Of a stretch of 44,698 nucleotides of DNA, positions 26,315-44,698 are shown in pieces. The DNA lies in the sequence record OR420686; one strand, written 5' to 3'. A program made the position numbers and the translations under genes. Below the pieces are notes generated by a model. That model worked only from the letters and a program-made list of their open reading frames with translations. It was not told where the DNA came from and did not search any database. This DNA comes from Shigella phage 1b. How positions within the stretch are numbered: position 1 is the first letter of the stretch; the number at the start of each line of letters is the position of its first letter.

Positions 26315-26922
26315 CCACATTTAAATTATACGGCGTTTTAGGACGTCGATTCGGTAAAGTGCATAAGCTGGACTGCTTCACACCGGGAGAGGGTATCACC
26401 GGCCTGTGCGTGAAGTTACCCGGCTTACAGGACTTTCTAATGTCGGCCCACCTGGACAACATAATGTTCAAGGTGCGCAAAGGCGACCACACGATGACCG
26501 GCTATGATGAGCTTGGCGAGTTCCACGGCAACCGCGTCGTCACCATCGCGCCGGTTATGACTGGCGCAAAAAGAGGGTTGGGGCAATTGCTGGCGGGTGT
26601 CGCGATCGTAGTGGCGTCGTTCTATACGGGCGGACTTGCTACTGCCGCTTTTGGAGCTTCGGCTGCGACCGCTGCCGCTATCGGTACGGCGACGTTTTCG
26701 TTCGGAATGTCGATGGCGCTGGGTGGCGTTATGCAATTGCTGTCGCCACAACCGAAAGGATTGCAGACAAGGCAGGATGTGGATAATAAGGCGTCTTATG
26801 CGTTCGGTGGCCCAGTAAACACGACCGCGCAAGGCACGGCACTTGGTGTATTATGGGGAGAGCGTGAGATCGGCGGCGCTATTATTTCAGCCGGAATCGT
26901 AACCGAGGATTTGAACGAATGA
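26305..26922 (+). CDS. tail assembly protein (lambda I-like)
   Basis: 205 aa with Gly/Ala-rich hydrophobic central region; lies between the K-like and J-like genes. Confidence 0.6.
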   Translation: MAMTTFKLYGVLGRRFGKVHKLDCFTPGEGITGLCVKLPGLQDFLMSAHLDNIMFKVRKGDHTMTGYDELGEFHGNRVVTIAPVMTGAKRGLGQLLAGVAIVVASFYTGGLATAAFGASAATAAAIGTATFSFGMSMALGGVMQLLSPQPKGLQTRQDVDNKASYAFGGPVNTTAQGTALGVLWGEREIGGAIISAGIVTEDLNE

Positions 26923-29900
26923 CGATTATCTACGACGTCACAGGGCATAAAGGCGGCGGCGGCAAACAGCACACCCCACAGGAGACGCCCGATAGCCTGC
27001 ATTCGCTGGCTAAAATCCGCATCTTGCTCGCACTGGGTGAAGGGGAATTCGAAAGTATTACCAGCGCCAGCGAATTGCGTCAGCGTGTATATCTGGACGG
27101 AACACCGATCCAGAACGCGGATCTGTCCGAAAACTTCCCCGGCGCGCGCGTGGAGTTCCGCCCAGGTACACAGCACCAGGATGTGATCCACGGATTTTCG
27201 GCGGTGGAAAGTGAGCAATCTGTCGGCGTAAAACTGGAAAACGGCACGCCGTGGGTGCGCCAGATTAACGATACCAGTCTGGACGCCGTGCGCATTCGAA
27301 TCGGTATTCCGGCCCTGTACACTAGCGAAGATAATGGCGACCTTGTGGGCGGGCGCATCGACTATAAGATCGTTGTGTATACAGATAACGCAGACCCGCG
27401 TGAGTTTACATTCGCTGCCGTTGGTAAAACTATGTCGCTGTACGAGCGCGATCACCGCATCGAACTACCGCCGAACGTAAATACCGGCTGGCGCGTAGAG
27501 GTGCACCGCATAACGGCGGACTCCACATCGGCAAAAGTGGTTAACGATATCCAGGTGCAATCTATCACTGAGATTATCGACGCCCGTCTTCGCTACCCGC
27601 TAACCGCGCTGTTGTTTGTGGAGTTCGACGCCAAAGCGTTCCAGAACATCCCGCGCGTGTCCATCAAGTGCAAAGGCCGCAAAGTTCTAATACCGAACAA
27701 CTACGACCCGATTAATCATACCTATTCCGGGGACTGGGACGGCACGTTTAAACGCGCATGGACGGATAACCCTGCGTGGCACTGGTACGATATTTGTATT
27801 ACTGAGCGCTTCGGCCTCGGTCGGCGTATCAAACCGCAAATGCTAAACCGGTACGCGCTCTACCAGATTGCGCAGCGCTGCGACCAGTTGGTCAGCGACG
27901 GCAACGGCGGACGGGAAATACGATTTAAGAATGATATGTACATCCAGTCGCAGACAGACGCCTGGACAGTGCTTAAGGATTTGGCTGCCATCTTCGCCGG
28001 AATGACCTGGTGGGGCAACCAGATGTTGAATATCGTCAGTGACCAACCGGTCGCAGCAGTGTCGCACACTATCACCAACGCCTCGGTTATTGATGGTCGA
28101 TTCGACTACGCATCTGGCAGCCAGAAAACGCGCTATTCCACATTCGCGGTAGCATACGGCAATCCGAAAAACCACTATGATGATGCCATCGCAACGGGGC
28201 AACGTGTAGAACTGGTACGCCGCCATAAGATTAACCGTCTTGATATTACGGCGATCGGCTGTACGCGTGAATCTGAAGCGCAACGACGCGGGCACTGGGC
28301 GCTAATCTCAAACCAGCTTGACCAGCAAGTTAGTTTTAAGGTGGGTATGGAGGGGTTATTCTTTATCCCCGGTAGCGTAGTCGCGATCGCAGATACTAAT
28401 ATTTCTGGCGGATTCGAGACTCGTGGCGGGCGACTGTTGTCGGACCCCGGAACGCGTACCGTGCTGAACACGGACGGCGAAATCACGTTCCGCCCCGGTG
28501 ATAAATTCCTGGTACGCACCGATAGCGGTAATGTGGAGACTCGCGAGATCGTCAGCGTCAACGGCAACAAGGTTACACTAAAAACCGCACTGGACGCCGA
28601 CCCGATCCCTGACCAGCCGTTTTGCGTTGATGGCGATGATATCCAGTTGCAGAAATTCCGCATCACCGACCTTGAATATGACGACTCTACCAGCACCTTT
28701 TCAGTGCGCGGGATCGAGTACAACGACAGCAAATATGATGCCGTTGATAATGGCGCTCGTCTTGACCCGGGCATCTTTACGCAAGTGCCTGACGGCGTAA
28801 TGAAGGGGCCGGAGTCCGTGACCATCACCCCTTCGCAGATTTCATCGCAAGGCCAGCTAATCACCAACGTGGATATTGTTTTCCCACCGGTGAAGGATGC
28901 CGTTGTCTATGAAATCCAGTGGCGACGCACCAGCTTGCAGAATCTGGAAATCCAGTGGGGAAACGACTGGGTGAACATCCCACGCACGGCATCGAACGGT
29001 GCGCACATCCCTAACGTGTTCTCCGGTAACTATCAGGCACGCGTCCGCGCAATCGGTATGGGCGAAATCTCGTCCCCGTGGGTGTCGTCCCCCATCACGC
29101 CGGTGGAAGGTCGCCTCGGTGGTCTTAACGCGCCTATCATCACCAACGCGATTTCTGGCCTCCACCAGATCCTATGGAAGTGGAATCACAACAACGCCGC
29201 GACGGATATTTCATACACCGAGCTCGAAGTGCGCAAGACCGGTGAAACGGAATGGAAATTTCTTACCAACGTCCCATATCCGGGGGCGGAGTATGCGCAA
29301 ACGTCGCTGGAGTTCGGGATCTACCAGCAGTTGCGCGCCCGCGTAGCAGATAAAATCGGCAACCTGTCAGACTGGTCGGCCCCGTTTGAAGGCCAGGTGA
29401 GTGACAAAGTTGACGAGTACATGAAGGGGCTTGATGACGAGTTCTTGACTTCCGAGGATGGAAAACACTTCCAGGAAGCAATAGACACCATTCCGCAAGG
29501 CATTTATGAATCAATGCTTACGGATGCTCAGCAGCTATTCAATGCCCGATCCGAGTATAAAGGGATTTATGCGGAAATCACGGTGGCGTATAACGTGGCA
29601 GCGGATGCCCACAAGGCGGTCGCGCAACTTGAGACGTTGATCGGCACGCGCCTTGACGATGCGGAAGCGGCGATCCACACGTTGCAGACCGCGCAAAGCA
29701 CGCATGAACAAGCCTTCGCCCAGTACCAACAAACTGTTGCCGCTAAGTTCGGGGAACAGGAAGCTGCAATCCAGCAGGTACAAACGGCAACGGCAGACGT
29801 AGCGGGCGCGCTGGCGGAGTACAAGACCCAGGTGGCGGCACAGTTCGGTCAGCAGTCTGCCGCTATTGAGCAGAAGATGACGTCAACGTTTAACCATGCC

Positions 29901-30338
29901 GGTGGCAACGCCACATACAGCCTTAAGGCGGGCGTGACATATAACGGGACTTACTATGACGCCGGTATGCAGCTTTCCGTAGTGGCGGAAGGCGGCGCGG
30001 TTAAATCCCGCATCGCATTCAAAGCAGACCAATTCTACATAATGCACCCATCTAACGGGTCGCTTTCGTCCGCGTTTATCGTAGACGGCGGCGCGGTGTA
30101 TATTGACACGGCACGCATCAAAGACGCGACTATCAACTTCGCGCAGATCACGGACACGTTGCAATCTAATAACTATGACGGCAACACGCGTGGTTGGCGC
30201 TTAGGGAAAGACGGAACGTTTATCAACCTGGGGACTGGAAGCGGTGGTGGTACAAAGCAGACCAACACCAACTACAGCGTTAAAGACGAGAACGGTGTTT
30301 TACGCGTGCAAATTGGCGAGCTTACTGGTCGCTGGTAG
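26919..30338 (+). CDS. central tail fibre / host specificity protein (lambda J-like)
   Basis: 1139 aa; N-terminal MTIIYDVTGHKGGGGK...LHSLAKIRILLALGEGE typical of gpJ-family proteins; canonical position. Confidence 0.85.
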   Translation: MTIIYDVTGHKGGGGKQHTPQETPDSLHSLAKIRILLALGEGEFESITSASELRQRVYLDGTPIQNADLSENFPGARVEFRPGTQHQDVIHGFSAVESEQSVGVKLENGTPWVRQINDTSLDAVRIRIGIPALYTSEDNGDLVGGRIDYKIVVYTDNADPREFTFAAVGKTMSLYERDHRIELPPNVNTGWRVEVHRITADSTSAKVVNDIQVQSITEIIDARLRYPLTALLFVEFDAKAFQNIPRVSIKCKGRKVLIPNNYDPINHTYSGDWDGTFKRAWTDNPAWHWYDICITERFGLGRRIKPQMLNRYALYQIAQRCDQLVSDGNGGREIRFKNDMYIQSQTDAWTVLKDLAAIFAGMTWWGNQMLNIVSDQPVAAVSHTITNASVIDGRFDYASGSQKTRYSTFAVAYGNPKNHYDDAIATGQRVELVRRHKINRLDITAIGCTRESEAQRRGHWALISNQLDQQVSFKVGMEGLFFIPGSVVAIADTNISGGFETRGGRLLSDPGTRTVLNTDGEITFRPGDKFLVRTDSGNVETREIVSVNGNKVTLKTALDADPIPDQPFCVDGDDIQLQKFRITDLEYDDSTSTFSVRGIEYNDSKYDAVDNGARLDPGIFTQVPDGVMKGPESVTITPSQISSQGQLITNVDIVFPPVKDAVVYEIQWRRTSLQNLEIQWGNDWVNIPRTASNGAHIPNVFSGNYQARVRAIGMGEISSPWVSSPITPVEGRLGGLNAPIITNAISGLHQILWKWNHNNAATDISYTELEVRKTGETEWKFLTNVPYPGAEYAQTSLEFGIYQQLRARVADKIGNLSDWSAPFEGQVSDKVDEYMKGLDDEFLTSEDGKHFQEAIDTIPQGIYESMLTDAQQLFNARSEYKGIYAEITVAYNVAADAHKAVAQLETLIGTRLDDAEAAIHTLQTAQSTHEQAFAQYQQTVAAKFGEQEAAIQQVQTATADVAGALAEYKTQVAAQFGQQSAAIEQKMTSTFNHAGGNATYSLKAGVTYNGTYYDAGMQLSVVAEGGAVKSRIAFKADQFYIMHPSNGSLSSAFIVDGGAVYIDTARIKDATINFAQITDTLQSNNYDGNTRGWRLGKDGTFINLGTGSGGGTKQTNTNYSVKDENGVLRVQIGELTGRW

Positions 30339-30373: not shown

Positions 30374-30676
30374 ATGGCATTCGGTATCGCAACGTGGGAC
30401 GCGCAAGGACGCCCAAACAACTACGGCATTAAACCGGTAAGCGTGATCGGAAGGATTCATCTTGCGGAAGGACAAAAATCAGGCGCATGGTCATTCCCTG
30501 TACCGGCGGGGATGAAAGTCGGATACGTGGTCGCACTGGATAAAGGCGCGGTCGGGCCCGGACGCAGAATAACCGCCAGCGGGAACACTATCACGGTTTC
30601 CGCGGCAAGTGAGGTTGGTGGCGGGGTTTACTCCGCATCTGAATGTGACGTTATTGTTTTTGTGGAGCGAGCATAA
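30374..30676 (+). CDS. hypothetical protein (100 aa)
   Basis: GAGG RBS; downstream of the J-like gene. Confidence 0.5.
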   Translation: MAFGIATWDAQGRPNNYGIKPVSVIGRIHLAEGQKSGAWSFPVPAGMKVGYVVALDKGAVGPGRRITASGNTITVSAASEVGGGVYSASECDVIVFVERA

Positions 30677-31350
30677 TGGCTAATTACGGCGCGTTGATTG
30701 ACTTACCAAACGGCAACCCGTTTATCACGCCAGAATCGACGCCGTTTTGTCTATTCCGCCGTGTGGTTGTTGGGTCTTCGGCTAACGGCACTGCGCAGTC
30801 GGCGGCTGCCGATATTAATTTGGGTGGTGACTACCCGGCAATAGCGTTTGTGAAAACTACGCACACCGCCCAGCCGACCGTCGTAGGGTCTTCTCGCGTT
30901 GGTAATGTGGTGAAGGTGAGCGCCAGCAATCCATTCGGGCAAGGCTTCACGATGACGGCTTACATCTTTGCCGTATTCCCACAGACCCTTCCGCGGTGGG
31001 GCTTCGCTATTTGGGATAAGACGGGCAAGCTAGTGCTTACTAATGAGAGTCGCGTACTAAGTGATTTAGTTACCGTCGGATCGCCAGGCGCTAACGGGGG
31101 GATTAACATTGACCAGACGCTAAACGGCAGCTACGCCGTCGCTCCGGGCATATTGGGGTCTACGCTGATCCGGTTTTTTGTGCAGGGCCAGCCGCAAGTA
31201 ATATCGGTGACGGCGTACACGGGGGCCAGATTTGATGGGTCGCGAACACGTATATCGGCAGCGTCGTCGGGGAACGCCGCGGGGGATGTGGTGGGGTATA
31301 CTAACAACGGCAACGCGATTATGGCGATTAACACTGCCAATTATGATTGA
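30676..31350 (+). CDS. hypothetical protein (224 aa), Gly/Ser/Thr/Asn-rich, possibly tail-associated
   Basis: Composition resembles fibre/receptor-binding accessory proteins; position. Confidence 0.45.
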   Translation: MANYGALIDLPNGNPFITPESTPFCLFRRVVVGSSANGTAQSAAADINLGGDYPAIAFVKTTHTAQPTVVGSSRVGNVVKVSASNPFGQGFTMTAYIFAVFPQTLPRWGFAIWDKTGKLVLTNESRVLSDLVTVGSPGANGGINIDQTLNGSYAVAPGILGSTLIRFFVQGQPQVISVTAYTGARFDGSRTRISAASSGNAAGDVVGYTNNGNAIMAINTANYD

Positions 31351-31369
31351 AGAAAGCCCCTTTCGGGGC

Positions 31370-31588
31370 TTACTTGCAGGTGGTGCTTTTGAAGTGGTCT
31401 ACCGACACATACTGGAAGTTGAACGGATACCCAGCCCGTAACATTTTATGACCGCTAACGTCTGCAACCCCAAACACCGGGACTGAATACTCCATGCCAC
31501 TATTCATGTATGTCGCGTCGCAGATTTTAGACGGCATGTTGGCACAACCTGACAAAAGAACCGCACAAATCATAATTAAAGTTTTCAT
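31370..31588 (-). CDS. small lipoprotein (72 aa), candidate superinfection-exclusion factor
   Basis: Track ORF trimmed to MKTLIMICAVLLSGC (signal peptide plus lipobox LLSGC); AGGAGAT RBS; opposite strand to the flanking tail genes. Confidence 0.55.
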   Translation of the reverse strand: MKTLIMICAVLLSGCANMPSKICDATYMNSGMEYSVPVFGVADVSGHKMLRAGYPFNFQYVSVDHFKSTTCK

Positions 31589-31668
31589 GGTATCATCTCC
31601 TATATTTGGTTGGGTTTTAGTATTGCACCTCTCAACCAAGAATGCAACCAATTTATGAGGATTCAGCT

Positions 31669-33264
31669 ATGGCAGCGGGTACACTATCCGTAACGAATAA
31701 CAGCAAGGCGGTAGTCGGTGTCGGCACAACGTTTACCGCGCTTAAAGCTGGCGACTTTCTGTCGCTGGTAGTGGGGCAAGTCCCTTATACTGTTGCTATT
31801 GCGTCCGTCGAAAGCAACACCGCGCTTACGCTGGTGCTGCCGTTCGACGGCCCTACGGCAACCGGCCTTGGTTGGGATAGCGTAGCGCGCGATACCATGT
31901 CGCTGGCGACGATGGGTGTAACCGTCCAGGCACAGAAAGCACTTCGTATGCTGATCGCGGACGAAAACAACTGGCGTGCAATCTTCGGAGACGCTGAAGA
32001 AATCTCTGTCACGCTGCCTAATGGTCAGGTAATGCAGGGCATGTCCTGGGGCTACCTGTCGCAATTGCTGAAGGACGTAGACCCCGTTGAGATGCGCAAC
32101 CTGCAACAGCAAGCGGCCGCATCGGAAGCCGCCGCGCAAGGATTTCGCAATGAGGCCGAAGGCTTCAAGACTGAGACGGCAGGGATTCGCGACGACACCG
32201 ACCGGATTAAGGCGGATACGCAGGCCATCAAAGACCAGACGAACCAGATCAAGACTGACACCGGCGCTATGCGGGACGAGGCCAACACCGCCAATACTGC
32301 CGCGCAAGCCGCCAACACTGCCGCGCAAGCCGCCAGCGCTGCCGCGCAGGGGTACCGGAACGAGGCCGAACAATTCAAGAATGAGATCGACCCGTCGAGA
32401 TTGCTGGCAAAGGCCAACAACCTGAGCGACGTTGCCGACACAACGGCAGCGCGGGGTAACTTAGGCTTGGGGTCTGCGGCGACGCTAGATGCCGGCACGT
32501 CTGGGAATAAAGTGCCAAAACTAAACAATGCAAACACATGGTCGCGGCCGCAAACTTTCATAACCCCATTAGCGGTCGAGTCTGGCGGTACTGGCGTAAA
32601 CAGGGTCGAGGATCTATGGCCCGTGGTACGACCGCTCGATGTGTTTGGTAACGTCGGACGCTTTTTTGGAATACCGGACAGTATTCCCAAAAACCACATC
32701 TGGATGTGGAACCCGGCGGACACGCCGGCGTCAGGTTGGGCGAACTATTTAGAAGGCGGATGGTTCAATGGCGCGTGGCGTATCGGTGGTATACGTGGTT
32801 CAGGTCAGGATATGGCAGCATGCCAACTGTCAGTTTACAGCGGTCAGGGTATGAATAGCGACTATGTATTCAATAACAACGGCACCGCAAGCGCCGCAAA
32901 CTGGGTCAACACATCCGACATAAGAGTAAAACGCGATATAGCTAAAATAGAAGACCCGCTAACTAAGATGCGCTCTATTCGAGGCGTATCATGGACTATG
33001 CGCTTCAAAAACAACCCCCTTAAAGGTTTCGGTTTTATCGCACAGGAAGTGCAAAAGTATTTTCCTGATGCTGTTAGAGTGGTAAACCAAAACCCTGTCA
33101 CACTTGAAGACGATACCGTTGTTGAGGATGTAATGAGCGTTGACACCGCGGGAGTGTCCGCCGCGCTACATCACGAAGCCATACTAGCACTGATGGATAA
33201 AATGGAGGATATGCAGAAAGAACTGGAGGCGTTGAAAGCCGAGCTAGCGGCGATGAGGAAATAA
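31669..33264 (+). CDS. tail fibre protein with C-terminal intramolecular chaperone (S74-like) domain
   Basis: Track ORF trimmed to MAAGTLSV (GAGGA RBS); fibre repeat GTLSVTNNSKAVVGVGTTF; Ala/Gln coiled-coil region; C-terminal SDIRVKRDIAKIEDPL...GFGFIAQEVQKYFP typical of auto-cleaving chaperone domains. Confidence 0.75.
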   Translation: MAAGTLSVTNNSKAVVGVGTTFTALKAGDFLSLVVGQVPYTVAIASVESNTALTLVLPFDGPTATGLGWDSVARDTMSLATMGVTVQAQKALRMLIADENNWRAIFGDAEEISVTLPNGQVMQGMSWGYLSQLLKDVDPVEMRNLQQQAAASEAAAQGFRNEAEGFKTETAGIRDDTDRIKADTQAIKDQTNQIKTDTGAMRDEANTANTAAQAANTAAQAASAAAQGYRNEAEQFKNEIDPSRLLAKANNLSDVADTTAARGNLGLGSAATLDAGTSGNKVPKLNNANTWSRPQTFITPLAVESGGTGVNRVEDLWPVVRPLDVFGNVGRFFGIPDSIPKNHIWMWNPADTPASGWANYLEGGWFNGAWRIGGIRGSGQDMAACQLSVYSGQGMNSDYVFNNNGTASAANWVNTSDIRVKRDIAKIEDPLTKMRSIRGVSWTMRFKNNPLKGFGFIAQEVQKYFPDAVRVVNQNPVTLEDDTVVEDVMSVDTAGVSAALHHEAILALMDKMEDMQKELEALKAELAAMRK

Positions 33265-33266
33265 TA

Positions 33267-33289
33267 GGGGCCGTATGGCCCCATTTTTA
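33267..33289. terminator. bidirectional terminator hairpin between convergent transcription units
   Basis: ggggccgtatggcccc followed by atttttag on the plus strand; lies between the tail fibre stop and the stop of minus gene 33287..33862. Confidence 0.6.
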
Positions 33290-33862
33290 GTTTGAGTTTT
33301 CCCAGTCCATTTTGCGACGCACCAGCGGGCTTTCGTAGTATTCCTTACCGTCCACTTCCACCAGAGGCCAGTCGTTCACAATCACGTATGGCTCCGCGAT
33401 ATCCTCGATCACGCCGTGCGCGCTTTGCGGCCCTAACGATACGCCCACCAGGATAACACCGGCAACGCGACGGGTAAGGTATTCGCGAGCGCAACGTGCC
33501 TCAACCAGACCGCGACGGATGCCGCTGGTGGCCTTAACCTCGTAAGTCCATACGGCATCGATCACATGCTCGCGGAAGTCGGGGCCGGACTTAACCTTGC
33601 GTTTGCCGACCATGATAATATCGCCGCGGTCGATTGTGTTAGCGCTAAACAGGCCGGTACGCATTAGCAAACCTTGCGGGATACAGCTACGCCCGCCCGC
33701 CTGCCCTTCGAGGTACATGCCTGCAAACATCTCGCCAAGCACACCGACAAGACGGCTTTGCTTGCACGCGTCAGACTTGTATCGCCACTGGTCAAACTCG
33801 ATGCTTGCAATCATTGCCGCCAGGTGGAATTGTTTACCGGTTATTTCGTATTCGCCATACAT
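33287..33862 (-). CDS. hypothetical protein (191 aa); possible PD-(D/E)XK-like nuclease fold
   Basis: GAGGG RBS; D...EVK arrangement (IDRGDIIMV ... TYEVKA) loosely resembles the PD-(D/E)XK core. Confidence 0.5.
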   Translation of the reverse strand: MYGEYEITGKQFHLAAMIASIEFDQWRYKSDACKQSRLVGVLGEMFAGMYLEGQAGGRSCIPQGLLMRTGLFSANTIDRGDIIMVGKRKVKSGPDFREHVIDAVWTYEVKATSGIRRGLVEARCAREYLTRRVAGVILVGVSLGPQSAHGVIEDIAEPYVIVNDWPLVEVDGKEYYESPLVRRKMDWENSN

Positions 33863-42963: not shown

Positions 42964-43202
42964 GCGTTTTTATTAAAAAGATTTCTGGTAACGTAGTTGG
43001 TCGCGTTCTCGATCCAGCTTAACGGCGGGCGGTTGATGTTCTTCTCCACCCAATCGACGGCAGCTTCGCTATAGCCGTCATCCAGCCAGCGGGTCGGATG
43101 TCGAATCATCCACGCCACCATTAACACGCCTTGCACGCAATGCAGGATAAATCCAAGCGCGCCGATAACAAACATCAATAAGATTGCGAATACTTTATTC
43201 AT
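42960..43202 (-). CDS. small membrane protein (80 aa)
   Basis: N-terminal hydrophobic helix (VFAILLMFVIGALGFIL); GAGGA RBS. Confidence 0.5.
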   Translation of the reverse strand: MNKVFAILLMFVIGALGFILHCVQGVLMVAWMIRHPTRWLDDGYSEAAVDWVEKNINRPPLSWIENATNYVTRNLFNKNA

Positions 43203-44631
43203 TACTTAAGTCCTCGTCGGTAGCTTCAGACCACGCGGGGCGCGGGTCGTCGATAGGAGCTAATACCGGTTTAGCCGGTGCGCGCGTGATTTTATCACAT
43301 AATTTTGCCCACACTTTCGGCTTCTCGTCCTTAAGTACCTTCTCAGCGTCGGTAGGACTGAGCAATGTTTCTTTGTACATCACATCGCGCTTGATCCTGG
43401 CCTTCGTGAAGATTTCGATCACTTCGCTTTCGTCCGCCCACTTGCGAATCCCTTCCTTTCCGGCAACCATCTTGAGGCCCAGCGATTCGCCATCCCCCGC
43501 CATTACCGCTTTGAATACCGCGGACTCGATAGCTTTGATGTGCTGGCGCATTGCGTCCAGGCCCTCATAAGCCTTGCGCAGTTCCGCAGCGCTCATAGCG
43601 CCGGGGGCCGCTTCTTTCTTACCACGCTTCGCACGTCGTGCCGCCTTCCGGGCTTCGCGGGCCATATTGCGGTCGTGATTGGCGCATTCTTCCTCTGTCG
43701 CAATACTCACGTCGTCGCCCAGGTCTTCGTCTGTTGCCGTTGGTGGGGTCATCGTGTCGATTGCGGCCTTCGCCCGGGCGCTGCACTGGTCTGCAAATCG
43801 GCACCACTGGCACGCATCGACGCTGGGCCGGAAGTCCGCGCGGGTTAGCCCCTTCTTGCCGCGGGCGTATGCATCGAGCGCGGCGATAGCACGCTTGGAC
43901 GCAAACTTCGCGAATATCTCCAGCGCTTCCACGGTAATATCCCACTCCGACGCCCCGCCGCAATACGGCTGGAAGATGACCAGGCGCACGGTTGTTATGT
44001 CGTACATAGTTTGCAGCTTGCGCAGCAGGCCGAGCGCGTACAACATAAGCTGTTTGTTTTCTTTCGCCTCGACCTTATGCCGCCCAGTCTTCAGGTCGCC
44101 AACAATCAGCATGTACGTACCGTCGGTCTTCTTCATGACCATGACCATATCGGCGGTGCCGAATGTCTTAACCCGGTTGCCGTCGATCTCGAAGCCAGAG
44201 TGTAGGACGCGGGTTAGTTCGGCGCGCATCTCAAGCTGAACAAACTCCGCCACTTCGAGGAGCGGTCGCCAGTGGTCGATGTACGCGTCGCACTGTTTCA
44301 CCATATCGTCATTGACCAGTACGCCGCCTTTCGGCGCTTTCGGGTGTGCCTTTACTGGCCCCTTACCTTCGTTCTCGACGTAACATCCTTTATATGTCTT
44401 TGCGGTTATCGTCTTTTCACCGGCGATAATGCGGTTTAGCACCACTTCAGATACGGTGTGCATACTCGTACCGTTAATCGCGGCCTGCCCGGATTCGTTC
44501 GGGATATCTTTTTCTACCACCAGGGCGGCAGGGCAACCCATCCATTTTTTAGCACCGGATGGACCAAGTAATGAGTGTTCCGTATTGCTACCGGATTGCG
44601 TTTTACGTTTTGGTTTAATCGCCATGGACAT
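43195..44631 (-). CDS. PD-(D/E)XK exonuclease (DUF2800/RecB-Cas4-like) with C-terminal Cys cluster
   Basis: N-terminal LLGPSGAKKWMGCPA signature, GTADMVMV and IVGDLKTGRHK...QLMLYALG nuclease core, CQWCRFADQC cysteine motif. Confidence 0.7.
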   Translation of the reverse strand: MSMAIKPKRKTQSGSNTEHSLLGPSGAKKWMGCPAALVVEKDIPNESGQAAINGTSMHTVSEVVLNRIIAGEKTITAKTYKGCYVENEGKGPVKAHPKAPKGGVLVNDDMVKQCDAYIDHWRPLLEVAEFVQLEMRAELTRVLHSGFEIDGNRVKTFGTADMVMVMKKTDGTYMLIVGDLKTGRHKVEAKENKQLMLYALGLLRKLQTMYDITTVRLVIFQPYCGGASEWDITVEALEIFAKFASKRAIAALDAYARGKKGLTRADFRPSVDACQWCRFADQCSARAKAAIDTMTPPTATDEDLGDDVSIATEEECANHDRNMAREARKAARRAKRGKKEAAPGAMSAAELRKAYEGLDAMRQHIKAIESAVFKAVMAGDGESLGLKMVAGKEGIRKWADESEVIEIFTKARIKRDVMYKETLLSPTDAEKVLKDEKPKVWAKLCDKITRAPAKPVLAPIDDPRPAWSEATDEDLSNE

Positions 44632-44698
44632 TCTTTGGGTTGGTGATGAAATTGTAATTGACTTCCCACAAGAATATTGTGAACCTGAGTATCTATAA

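Follow-up and report, generated by a model that had tools for sequence, protein, structure and literature searches.

The small minus-strand gene located between the gpJ gene cluster and the lateral tail fiber gene of Shigella phage 1b is very probably cor, and its product the superinfection-exclusion lipoprotein of an FhuA-dependent virulent Dhillonvirus. The gene itself is a textbook cor: most related genomes have it annotated, nearly identical copies are known by annotation from more than 100 related coliphages, and the literature has already dealt with it. Likewise, the link between the cor cassette and FhuA has been described already for T1-like phages, N15, phi80, HK022, and, explicitly, for Dhillonviruses. 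The original prediction placed at this locus an opposite-strand lipoprotein ORF of 72 aa, preceded by a ribosome-binding site (RBS), and proposed for its product a receptor-blocking role of the Cor or Llp type. Results of our analysis agree with the former as to the sequence and translation, and support the latter by scores above curated family thresholds, by 51% identity to Cor of T1, and by a shared gene cassette.

The stretch of DNA analyzed here (sequence record OR420686, 44,698 nt, further referred to as the window) is a nearly complete genome of a Dhillonvirus, a siphophage of the HK578/SO-1-like virulent coliphages. Its identity to the genome of Escherichia phage UHP65 is about 92%, and to many others about 90-91%. 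For the last 73 bases (44626-44698) the identity is to another phage: they match at 100% the 3' end of a hypothetical gene from Vibrio cholerae phage ICP1, as far as its stop codon. This segment is matched by 41 ICP1 records, while every Dhillonvirus match ends at position 44625. The junction at 44625 lies in the sequence CCATGG, at the start codon of a 478-aa minus-strand ORF (43195-44631), and in the coordinates of the related NHEP3 genome position 1 of the window comes about 190 nt after position 44625. The ICP1-identical end together with the NHEP3 order suggest that the window is the circularly permuted genome of a Dhillonvirus to which a foreign tail has been joined, probably as a chimera of assembly or concatenation.

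The coding sequence of cor (31370..31588, minus strand, 219 nt) comprises 72 codons and a TAA stop codon. As read from the sequence and the ORF list, it starts with ATG at 31588 and ends with TAA at 31370, and its 72-aa product is MKTLIMICAVLLSGCANMPSKICDATYMNSGMEYSVPVFGVADVSGHKMLRAGYPFNFQYVSVDHFKSTTCK. The region originally delimited, 31370-31660, corresponds to this coding sequence with its 5' region. In the mechanically called ORF the frame is limited upstream by a TTG at 31651, which gives a product of 93 aa; ATG 31588 was chosen as the start because all homologs begin at the methionine of the MK.. sequence. The G+C content of cor is 45%, as compared to 54.5% for the whole window. The gene is convergent with the plus-strand ORF of 224 aa (30676-31350) and divergent from the plus-strand lateral tail fiber gene.

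The N-terminal part of the Cor precursor, MKTLIMICAVLLSGC (31544..31588, minus strand), has the features of a lipoprotein signal peptide. It is short, basic and hydrophobic, and ends with the lipobox L-S-G-C, so that lipidation is predicted at Cys15; the mature chain continues with ANMPSK... The residue at position +2 is Ala, and the Asp inner-membrane retention signal is absent. By the established sorting rule of E. coli lipoproteins, an outer-membrane location of Cor is therefore predicted. Mature Cor would have 58 aa (about 6.4 kDa) with two further cysteines, C23 and C71, and its C-terminus (...DHFKSTTCK) is hydrophilic.

Comparisons with curated protein families assign the product of this gene to the Cor family. 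It matches the NCBIfam equivalog model NF047972 'phage exclusion lipoprotein Cor' over residues 2-71 with 62.2 bits (E 3.3e-17; curated cut-off 31 bits), and PHROG 1119 'Cor superinfection exclusion protein' over its full length (residues 1-72, E 1.1e-28). In Pfam, no model matched Cor or either of the 100-aa and 224-aa proteins encoded next to it. While the initial search for Cor homologs yielded six close relatives, and sequences of T1-like phages were reached by a profile search, a tblastn search found cor matches in 245 phage records. The amino acid sequence identities to Cor were 83-99% in Dhillonviruses, where the matches are commonly annotated as 'super-infection exclusion protein (cor)', about 50-57% in T1-like phages (51% in T1 itself), 45% in HK022-like lambdoid phages, and 42% in N15. 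The identity to the experimentally studied Cor proteins of N15, phi80, and HK022 is 40-46% (42% in the case of phi80). The family is small: when 1.84 billion cluster representatives were searched exhaustively with a profile, 33 clusters emerged. One of them, the repetitive 1163-aa protein P0045, was rejected as a chance match. In the alignment of family members, which included T1, N15, phi80, HK022, and metagenomic homologs, the lipobox residues L12, G14, and C15 are invariant, as are C23, G31, V36, the A52-F56 segment (AGYPF), V61, F66, and C71. Additionally, R51, which extends this segment to an R-A-G-Y-P-F motif, is conserved in 10 of 11 sequences.

The length of cor by itself is not significant, since the window holds dozens of random ORFs of nearly the same length. 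This frequency of similar ORFs, as well as the lack of cor annotation in some deposited records, might suggest that cor is a random ORF, or else a gene in decay that is not expressed, but the probability of this explanation is next to nil. In the window and five other Dhillonviruses (six genomes in total) the dN/dS of cor is 0.04-0.21, the reading frame is unbroken in all of them, and the differences are mostly at third codon positions. The RBS-like element, promoter-like block, and terminator described below are all conserved as well, and there are the matches to PHROG 1119 and NF047972; the chance-ORF explanation was rejected on these three grounds. Thus, being conserved under purifying selection and matching curated family models, cor is a genuine, selectively maintained gene. 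As to its annotation, in the record of phage SM_S22 (PP627283.1, positions 1501-1719) the cor frame is intact, yet two short opposite-strand ORFs are annotated in its place, and the records of KarlBarth and several other phages label cor just as 'hypothetical protein'.

In agreement with the original prediction, an RBS, AGGAG (31597..31601, minus strand), is present 8 nt before the ATG. The same sequence occurs in KarlBarth and JLBYU60, and it is also kept in three phages with other receptor modules, while AGAGG is found in Teewinot and AGGGG in bob and SM_S22. Further upstream, a candidate sigma-70 promoter with an extended -10 element (TTGCAT, 17-nt spacer, TGcAATACT; 31619..31647, minus strand) could be discerned in the sequence. 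This block is near-invariant across Dhillonviruses, including those of LptD and BtuB type. It was passed over by the consensus promoter scan, since only three of six positions of its -35 hexamer agree with the consensus. A weak minus-strand site that the scan did report (31596-31569) overlaps the start codon and cannot serve cor. On the plus strand, a sigma-70-like site located within cor (31549-31576; CTGACA, 16-nt spacer, CATAAT, 10 of 12 consensus matches) points to the lateral tail fiber gene; relatives do not conserve its -35 hexamer, which falls on a wobble position. If active, this site would give rise to a transcript overlapping the 5' end of the cor transcript.

Downstream of cor, the gap between this gene and the convergent 224-aa gene is filled by a hairpin resembling an intrinsic terminator (GCCCC-GAAA-GGGGC followed by TTTCTTC; 31349..31370, minus strand), with a predicted folding energy of -14.4 kcal/mol and a z-score of -4.3 relative to shuffled sequences. 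The stem is kept in relatives, with GAAA or TTTC in the loop, and in Teewinot a compensatory change replaces G-C with T-A at the stem base. The run of T residues is good only on the cor strand. The terminator scan missed this hairpin, presumably because the extended stem uses up the first T of the tail. The cor gene thus has the layout of a single-gene unit on the opposite strand, complete with an RBS, a promoter-like block that is conserved, and a terminator hairpin. Strand inversion combined with these elements fits transcription of cor independent of the late tail operon, which had been supposed at the outset, as far as it can be read from sequence signals.

The genomic neighborhood of cor points to FhuA as the receptor. 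The gpJ gene (26919-30338, plus strand) is followed on the same strand by two ORFs and then by cor. The first of them (30374..30676) encodes a 100-aa protein of the N15 gp22/phi80 gp22 type, labeled 'outer membrane protein' (PHROG 557, E 9.9e-33; 70% identity to phi80 gp22). The second (30676..31350) encodes a 224-aa protein of the N15 gp23/phi80 gp23 type, labeled 'membrane associated protein' (PHROG 425, E 1e-69; 56% identity to phi80 gp23). The order J, ~100 aa, ~224 aa, and cor is found also in T1, N15, phi80, and JakobBernoulli, and in HK022 cor follows J. In Drexlerviridae and Dhillonvirus, Maffei et al. (2021) recognized downstream of gpJ 'bona fide RBP loci' accompanied by cognate exclusion proteins (PMC8594841), and the locus of the 224-aa protein is regarded as the FhuA-specific receptor-binding locus (PMC8594841, PMC13164509, bioRxiv 10.64898/2026.04.02.716166). 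According to the KanT1 paper, the full cor cassette marks the FhuA-dependent phages of the BASEL collection, Dhillonviruses included, and all BASEL phages that have this full cassette use FhuA (PMC13164509). Among Dhillonviruses, bob, Envy, JLBYU37, JLBYU60, and Teewinot depend on FhuA, and JLBYU37, JLBYU60, and Teewinot depend completely on its loop 8 (PMC10373560). Our inspection of the genomes of bob, JLBYU60, and Teewinot revealed the cor cassette in each of them. Since the full cassette is present in the phage studied here, the use of FhuA by this phage is predicted.

Among the Cor proteins of other lineages, those of T1 and other Drexlerviridae (e.g., JakobBernoulli/Bas07) are the most similar to that of the window, with 51-57% identity over the full length and the same lipobox, cysteine pair, and RAGYPF motif. 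These phages are also virulent, and they carry the same cassette, in which cor is likewise opposite in strand and convergent. They differ in lineage and, in the case of T1, also in what lies beyond cor: a recombination gene there, the lateral tail fiber gene here. The FhuA-inactivating Cor proteins of temperate phages phi80, N15, HK022, and mEp167 share the same invariant residues at 40-46% identity but contain a 3-residue insertion after the lipobox. The proteins encoded next to cor, gp22 and gp23 in phi80, are homologous to the 100-aa and 224-aa proteins of the window. FhuA is the common host receptor of these temperate phages and of the Dhillonvirus relatives of the phage studied here. While cor of N15 and phi80 is located on the tail-gene strand, it is inverted and convergent in virulent T1-like phages and Dhillonviruses. 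The cor genes of temperate phages are described as morons expressed from the prophage. Being located on the opposite strand of a virulent phage, cor of the window must therefore be expressed during lytic growth.

The constant association of cor with the two genes upstream of it can also be read in another way. [quoted passage not shown] This could mean that Cor works in one membrane complex with the 100-aa and 224-aa proteins, serving exclusion or the handling of the receptor, and that these two are not receptor-binding proteins (RBPs), an idea raised by the authors of the KanT1 study (PMC13164509). We consider such a complex improbable. In virulent phages the upstream genes are on the late tail strand after J and cor is on the other strand, which suggests a different timing of expression. 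Comparative genomics and AlphaFold3 modeling support an FhuA-specific RBP encoded by this locus (10.64898/2026.04.02.716166; PMC8594841). Moreover, cor genes of temperate phages, when cloned by themselves, are reported to be sufficient for exclusion, as related in 10.64898/2026.03.26.714494 with reference to Uc-Mass 2004.

The predicted structure of Cor suggests a weak similarity to Llp of phage T5, which is a small outer-membrane lipoprotein of similar size. The AlphaFold2 model of Cor is a small beta structure with a mean pLDDT of 84, and of about 95 over residues 21-70. Its best and only Foldseek match in PDB is chain 8a60_B, i.e., Llp bound to FhuA (TM-scores 0.50/0.57, rmsd 2.8 A over 51 columns); the probability of this match is 1.00, but its E value of 0.061 is weak, and the identity is 25%. 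The same chain is the only sequence match of Cor in PDB, weak as well (phmmer E 0.24, residues 3-40), and the top matches of the Cor model in BFVD include lipoproteins of T5-like phages. Published models of other Cor proteins agree with an Llp-like fold (PMC13164509; 10.64898/2026.03.26.714494). The disulfide between Cys11 and Cys58 of T5 Llp (PMC9586334) is similar in spacing to the pair Cys9-Cys57 of mature Cor. The target of Llp is FhuA, presumably the same as that of Cor. Sequence similarity between Cor and Llp is not significant alone, and the models of the Cor family fail to detect Llp. The genomic context differs too, as llp adjoins the gene of pb5, an unrelated RBP, in another genome region, while the neighbors of cor encode proteins of N15 gp22 and gp23 types and the lateral tail fiber.

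These similarities suggest how Cor may act. After the genome entry, cor would be transcribed independently of the late tail operon, as can be expected by analogy to the Cor family and T5 Llp. The precursor, judging by its signal peptide, would be exported, acylated at Cys15, and sorted to the outer membrane, and the resulting beta-rich domain of 57 residues would probably be clamped by a Cys23-Cys71 disulfide. From the periplasmic side, this domain would bind to FhuA, which is the ferrichrome transporter, and hold it in a state in which the extracellular loops, notably loop 8, refuse the phage tip. In consequence, FhuA-dependent superinfection would be blocked, and progeny phages would not be wasted on the debris of lysed cells. 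Inactivation of FhuA has been described for Cor of phi80, N15, HK022, and mEp167 (10.64898/2026.03.26.714494; PMC13164509). In the Llp-FhuA structure, Llp occupies the periplasmic face of FhuA, whose loops 7 and 8 are folded inward (PMC9586334), and the periplasmic-face mechanism with a change of loop 8 fits the loop-8 dependence of Dhillonviruses (PMC10373560). The exclusion of competitors and keeping progeny off debris have been indicated as benefits of such proteins for a virulent phage (PMC11990801). Thus, of the receptor masking that the original prediction put forward, membership in a receptor-blocking family stands, while literal masking of the cell surface is probably not the way in which Cor works; by analogy to Llp, its likely site of action is the periplasmic face of FhuA. 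Counting against this view, one study reportedly found that Cor requires other outer-membrane proteins or contacts them (Arguijo-Hernandez, 2018).

A lipoprotein of Cor/Llp fold could in principle be directed to a target other than FhuA, e.g., BtuB or another TonB-dependent transporter. Cor-like lipoproteins have been found also in BtuB-dependent phages (PMC13164509), and gp37 of PTXU06, a BtuB-dependent Dhillonvirus, weakly matches PHROG 1119. Such a change of target is hardly probable in the case of Cor from the window, as its mature domain is 84-99% identical to those of Dhillonviruses reported to depend on FhuA and 51% identical to that of T1 Cor, the FhuA-associated cassette is complete, and BLASTP found no similarity between Cor and mature PTXU06 gp37. 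A role in lysis, which a small outer-membrane phage lipoprotein with a lipobox could also play as an o-spanin or a unimolecular spanin, appears very improbable. The neighbors of cor are tail genes, and no i-spanin, holin, or endolysin gene adjoins or embeds it. The protein is without the C-terminal membrane helix typical of u-spanins, and its significant homology is to Cor, with no match to spanin families in Pfam, PHROG, and NCBIfam. We rejected the spanin assignment based on the tail-gene context, the hydrophilic C-terminus, and the lack of a spanin family match. FhuA-directed exclusion by Cor remains the explanation to which the data described above point.

The original prediction also connected cor with a neighboring receptor-binding gene. 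This connection holds for the module located just after gpJ but not for the lateral tail fiber gene (31669-33264, plus strand; in related records it starts at ATG 31669), since the fiber varies independently of cor. In phage KarlBarth, Cor is 96% identical to that of the window, and the lateral tail fiber is related only over the first ~145 residues. A link of cor to the lateral tail fiber gene was therefore rejected. In the lateral tail fiber of the window, the N-terminal region of ~145 residues is conserved, another stretch is coiled-coil-like and rich in Ala and Gln, and the C-terminal domain (residues 425-479) is an intramolecular chaperone, Peptidase_S74. Its distal part is unrelated to that of the KarlBarth fiber, in line with glycan-binding specificity being exchanged on its own. 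Directly after the lateral tail fiber gene, the minus strand encodes a 191-aa protein of PHROG 10558 (33287-33862, E 6e-119), which is kept in the same position in TheodorHerzl, PTXU06, WFI, and Teewinot.

Comparison with Dhillonviruses carrying other modules indicates that the final ~50 codons of the J gene, the two small genes that follow it, and cor are replaced jointly. For instance, gpJ of the window is 97% identical over 1099 aligned residues to J of the LptD-dependent phage TheodorHerzl, but from about residue 1085 onward the two proteins begin to diverge, and at the DNA level the identity drops sharply from about position 30175. The segment 30175..30338 (plus strand), which encodes the variable C-terminal end of gpJ, can thus be taken, from this comparison, as the left-hand joint of the receptor module. 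The corresponding slot of TheodorHerzl contains genes for a 311-aa RBP and a 76-aa lipoprotein of PHROG 4281, and Dhillonviruses of LptD and BtuB types encode other lipoproteins in exactly the slot of cor. Lipoproteins of the Rtp45 type (PHROG 4281; TheodorHerzl gp26 and WFI gp35) share with Cor the slot, the strand, and the upstream region, but their mature domains are unrelated to Cor, and their target is LptD. The BLASTP alignment of Cor with TheodorHerzl gp26 was limited to the signal peptide, and Cor matches PHROG 1119, not PHROG 4281. The relative of these LptD-type lipoproteins encoded by phage Rtp is a structurally proven LptD-directed exclusion factor (PMC12685063).

On the side of the lipoprotein gene, the similarity between the window and TheodorHerzl resumes inside the gene itself, so that its first five codons and the 80 nt upstream of it are common to both phages. 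The upstream 80 nt and the RBS are kept across Dhillonviruses with FhuA-, LptD-, and BtuB-type modules (31544-31668 in the window). In two of three phages with other modules, the signal peptide MKTLIMICAVLLSGC is identical to that of Cor (PTXU06 gp37 and WFI gp35), while the mature parts are unrelated; PTXU06 represents BtuB-dependent Dhillonviruses (PMC10373560). We are somewhat inclined to think that the promoter-like block and the RBS form a constant socket, behind which unrelated mature exclusion domains (Cor for FhuA, Rtp45-like for LptD, and a third type for BtuB) are swapped together with the matching receptor-binding genes and the gpJ tip. With the socket constant and the mature domain swapped, the module would have its right-hand recombination joint within the coding sequence of the lipoprotein, either at the lipobox or immediately behind it.

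The signal-peptide joint common to three module types is only a modestly new detail, since the modularity of the locus as a whole has been published already. In practice, our results may be of use for correcting a few database records, such as that of SM_S22, in which cor is missed. They also suggest that the shared promoter and signal-peptide joint could be a convenient engineering site for swaps of receptor specificity and exclusion in small siphophages. If the proposed arrangement is true, each switch of receptor in these phages would be accompanied by the matching exclusion factor, expressed and exported by means of the same signals.
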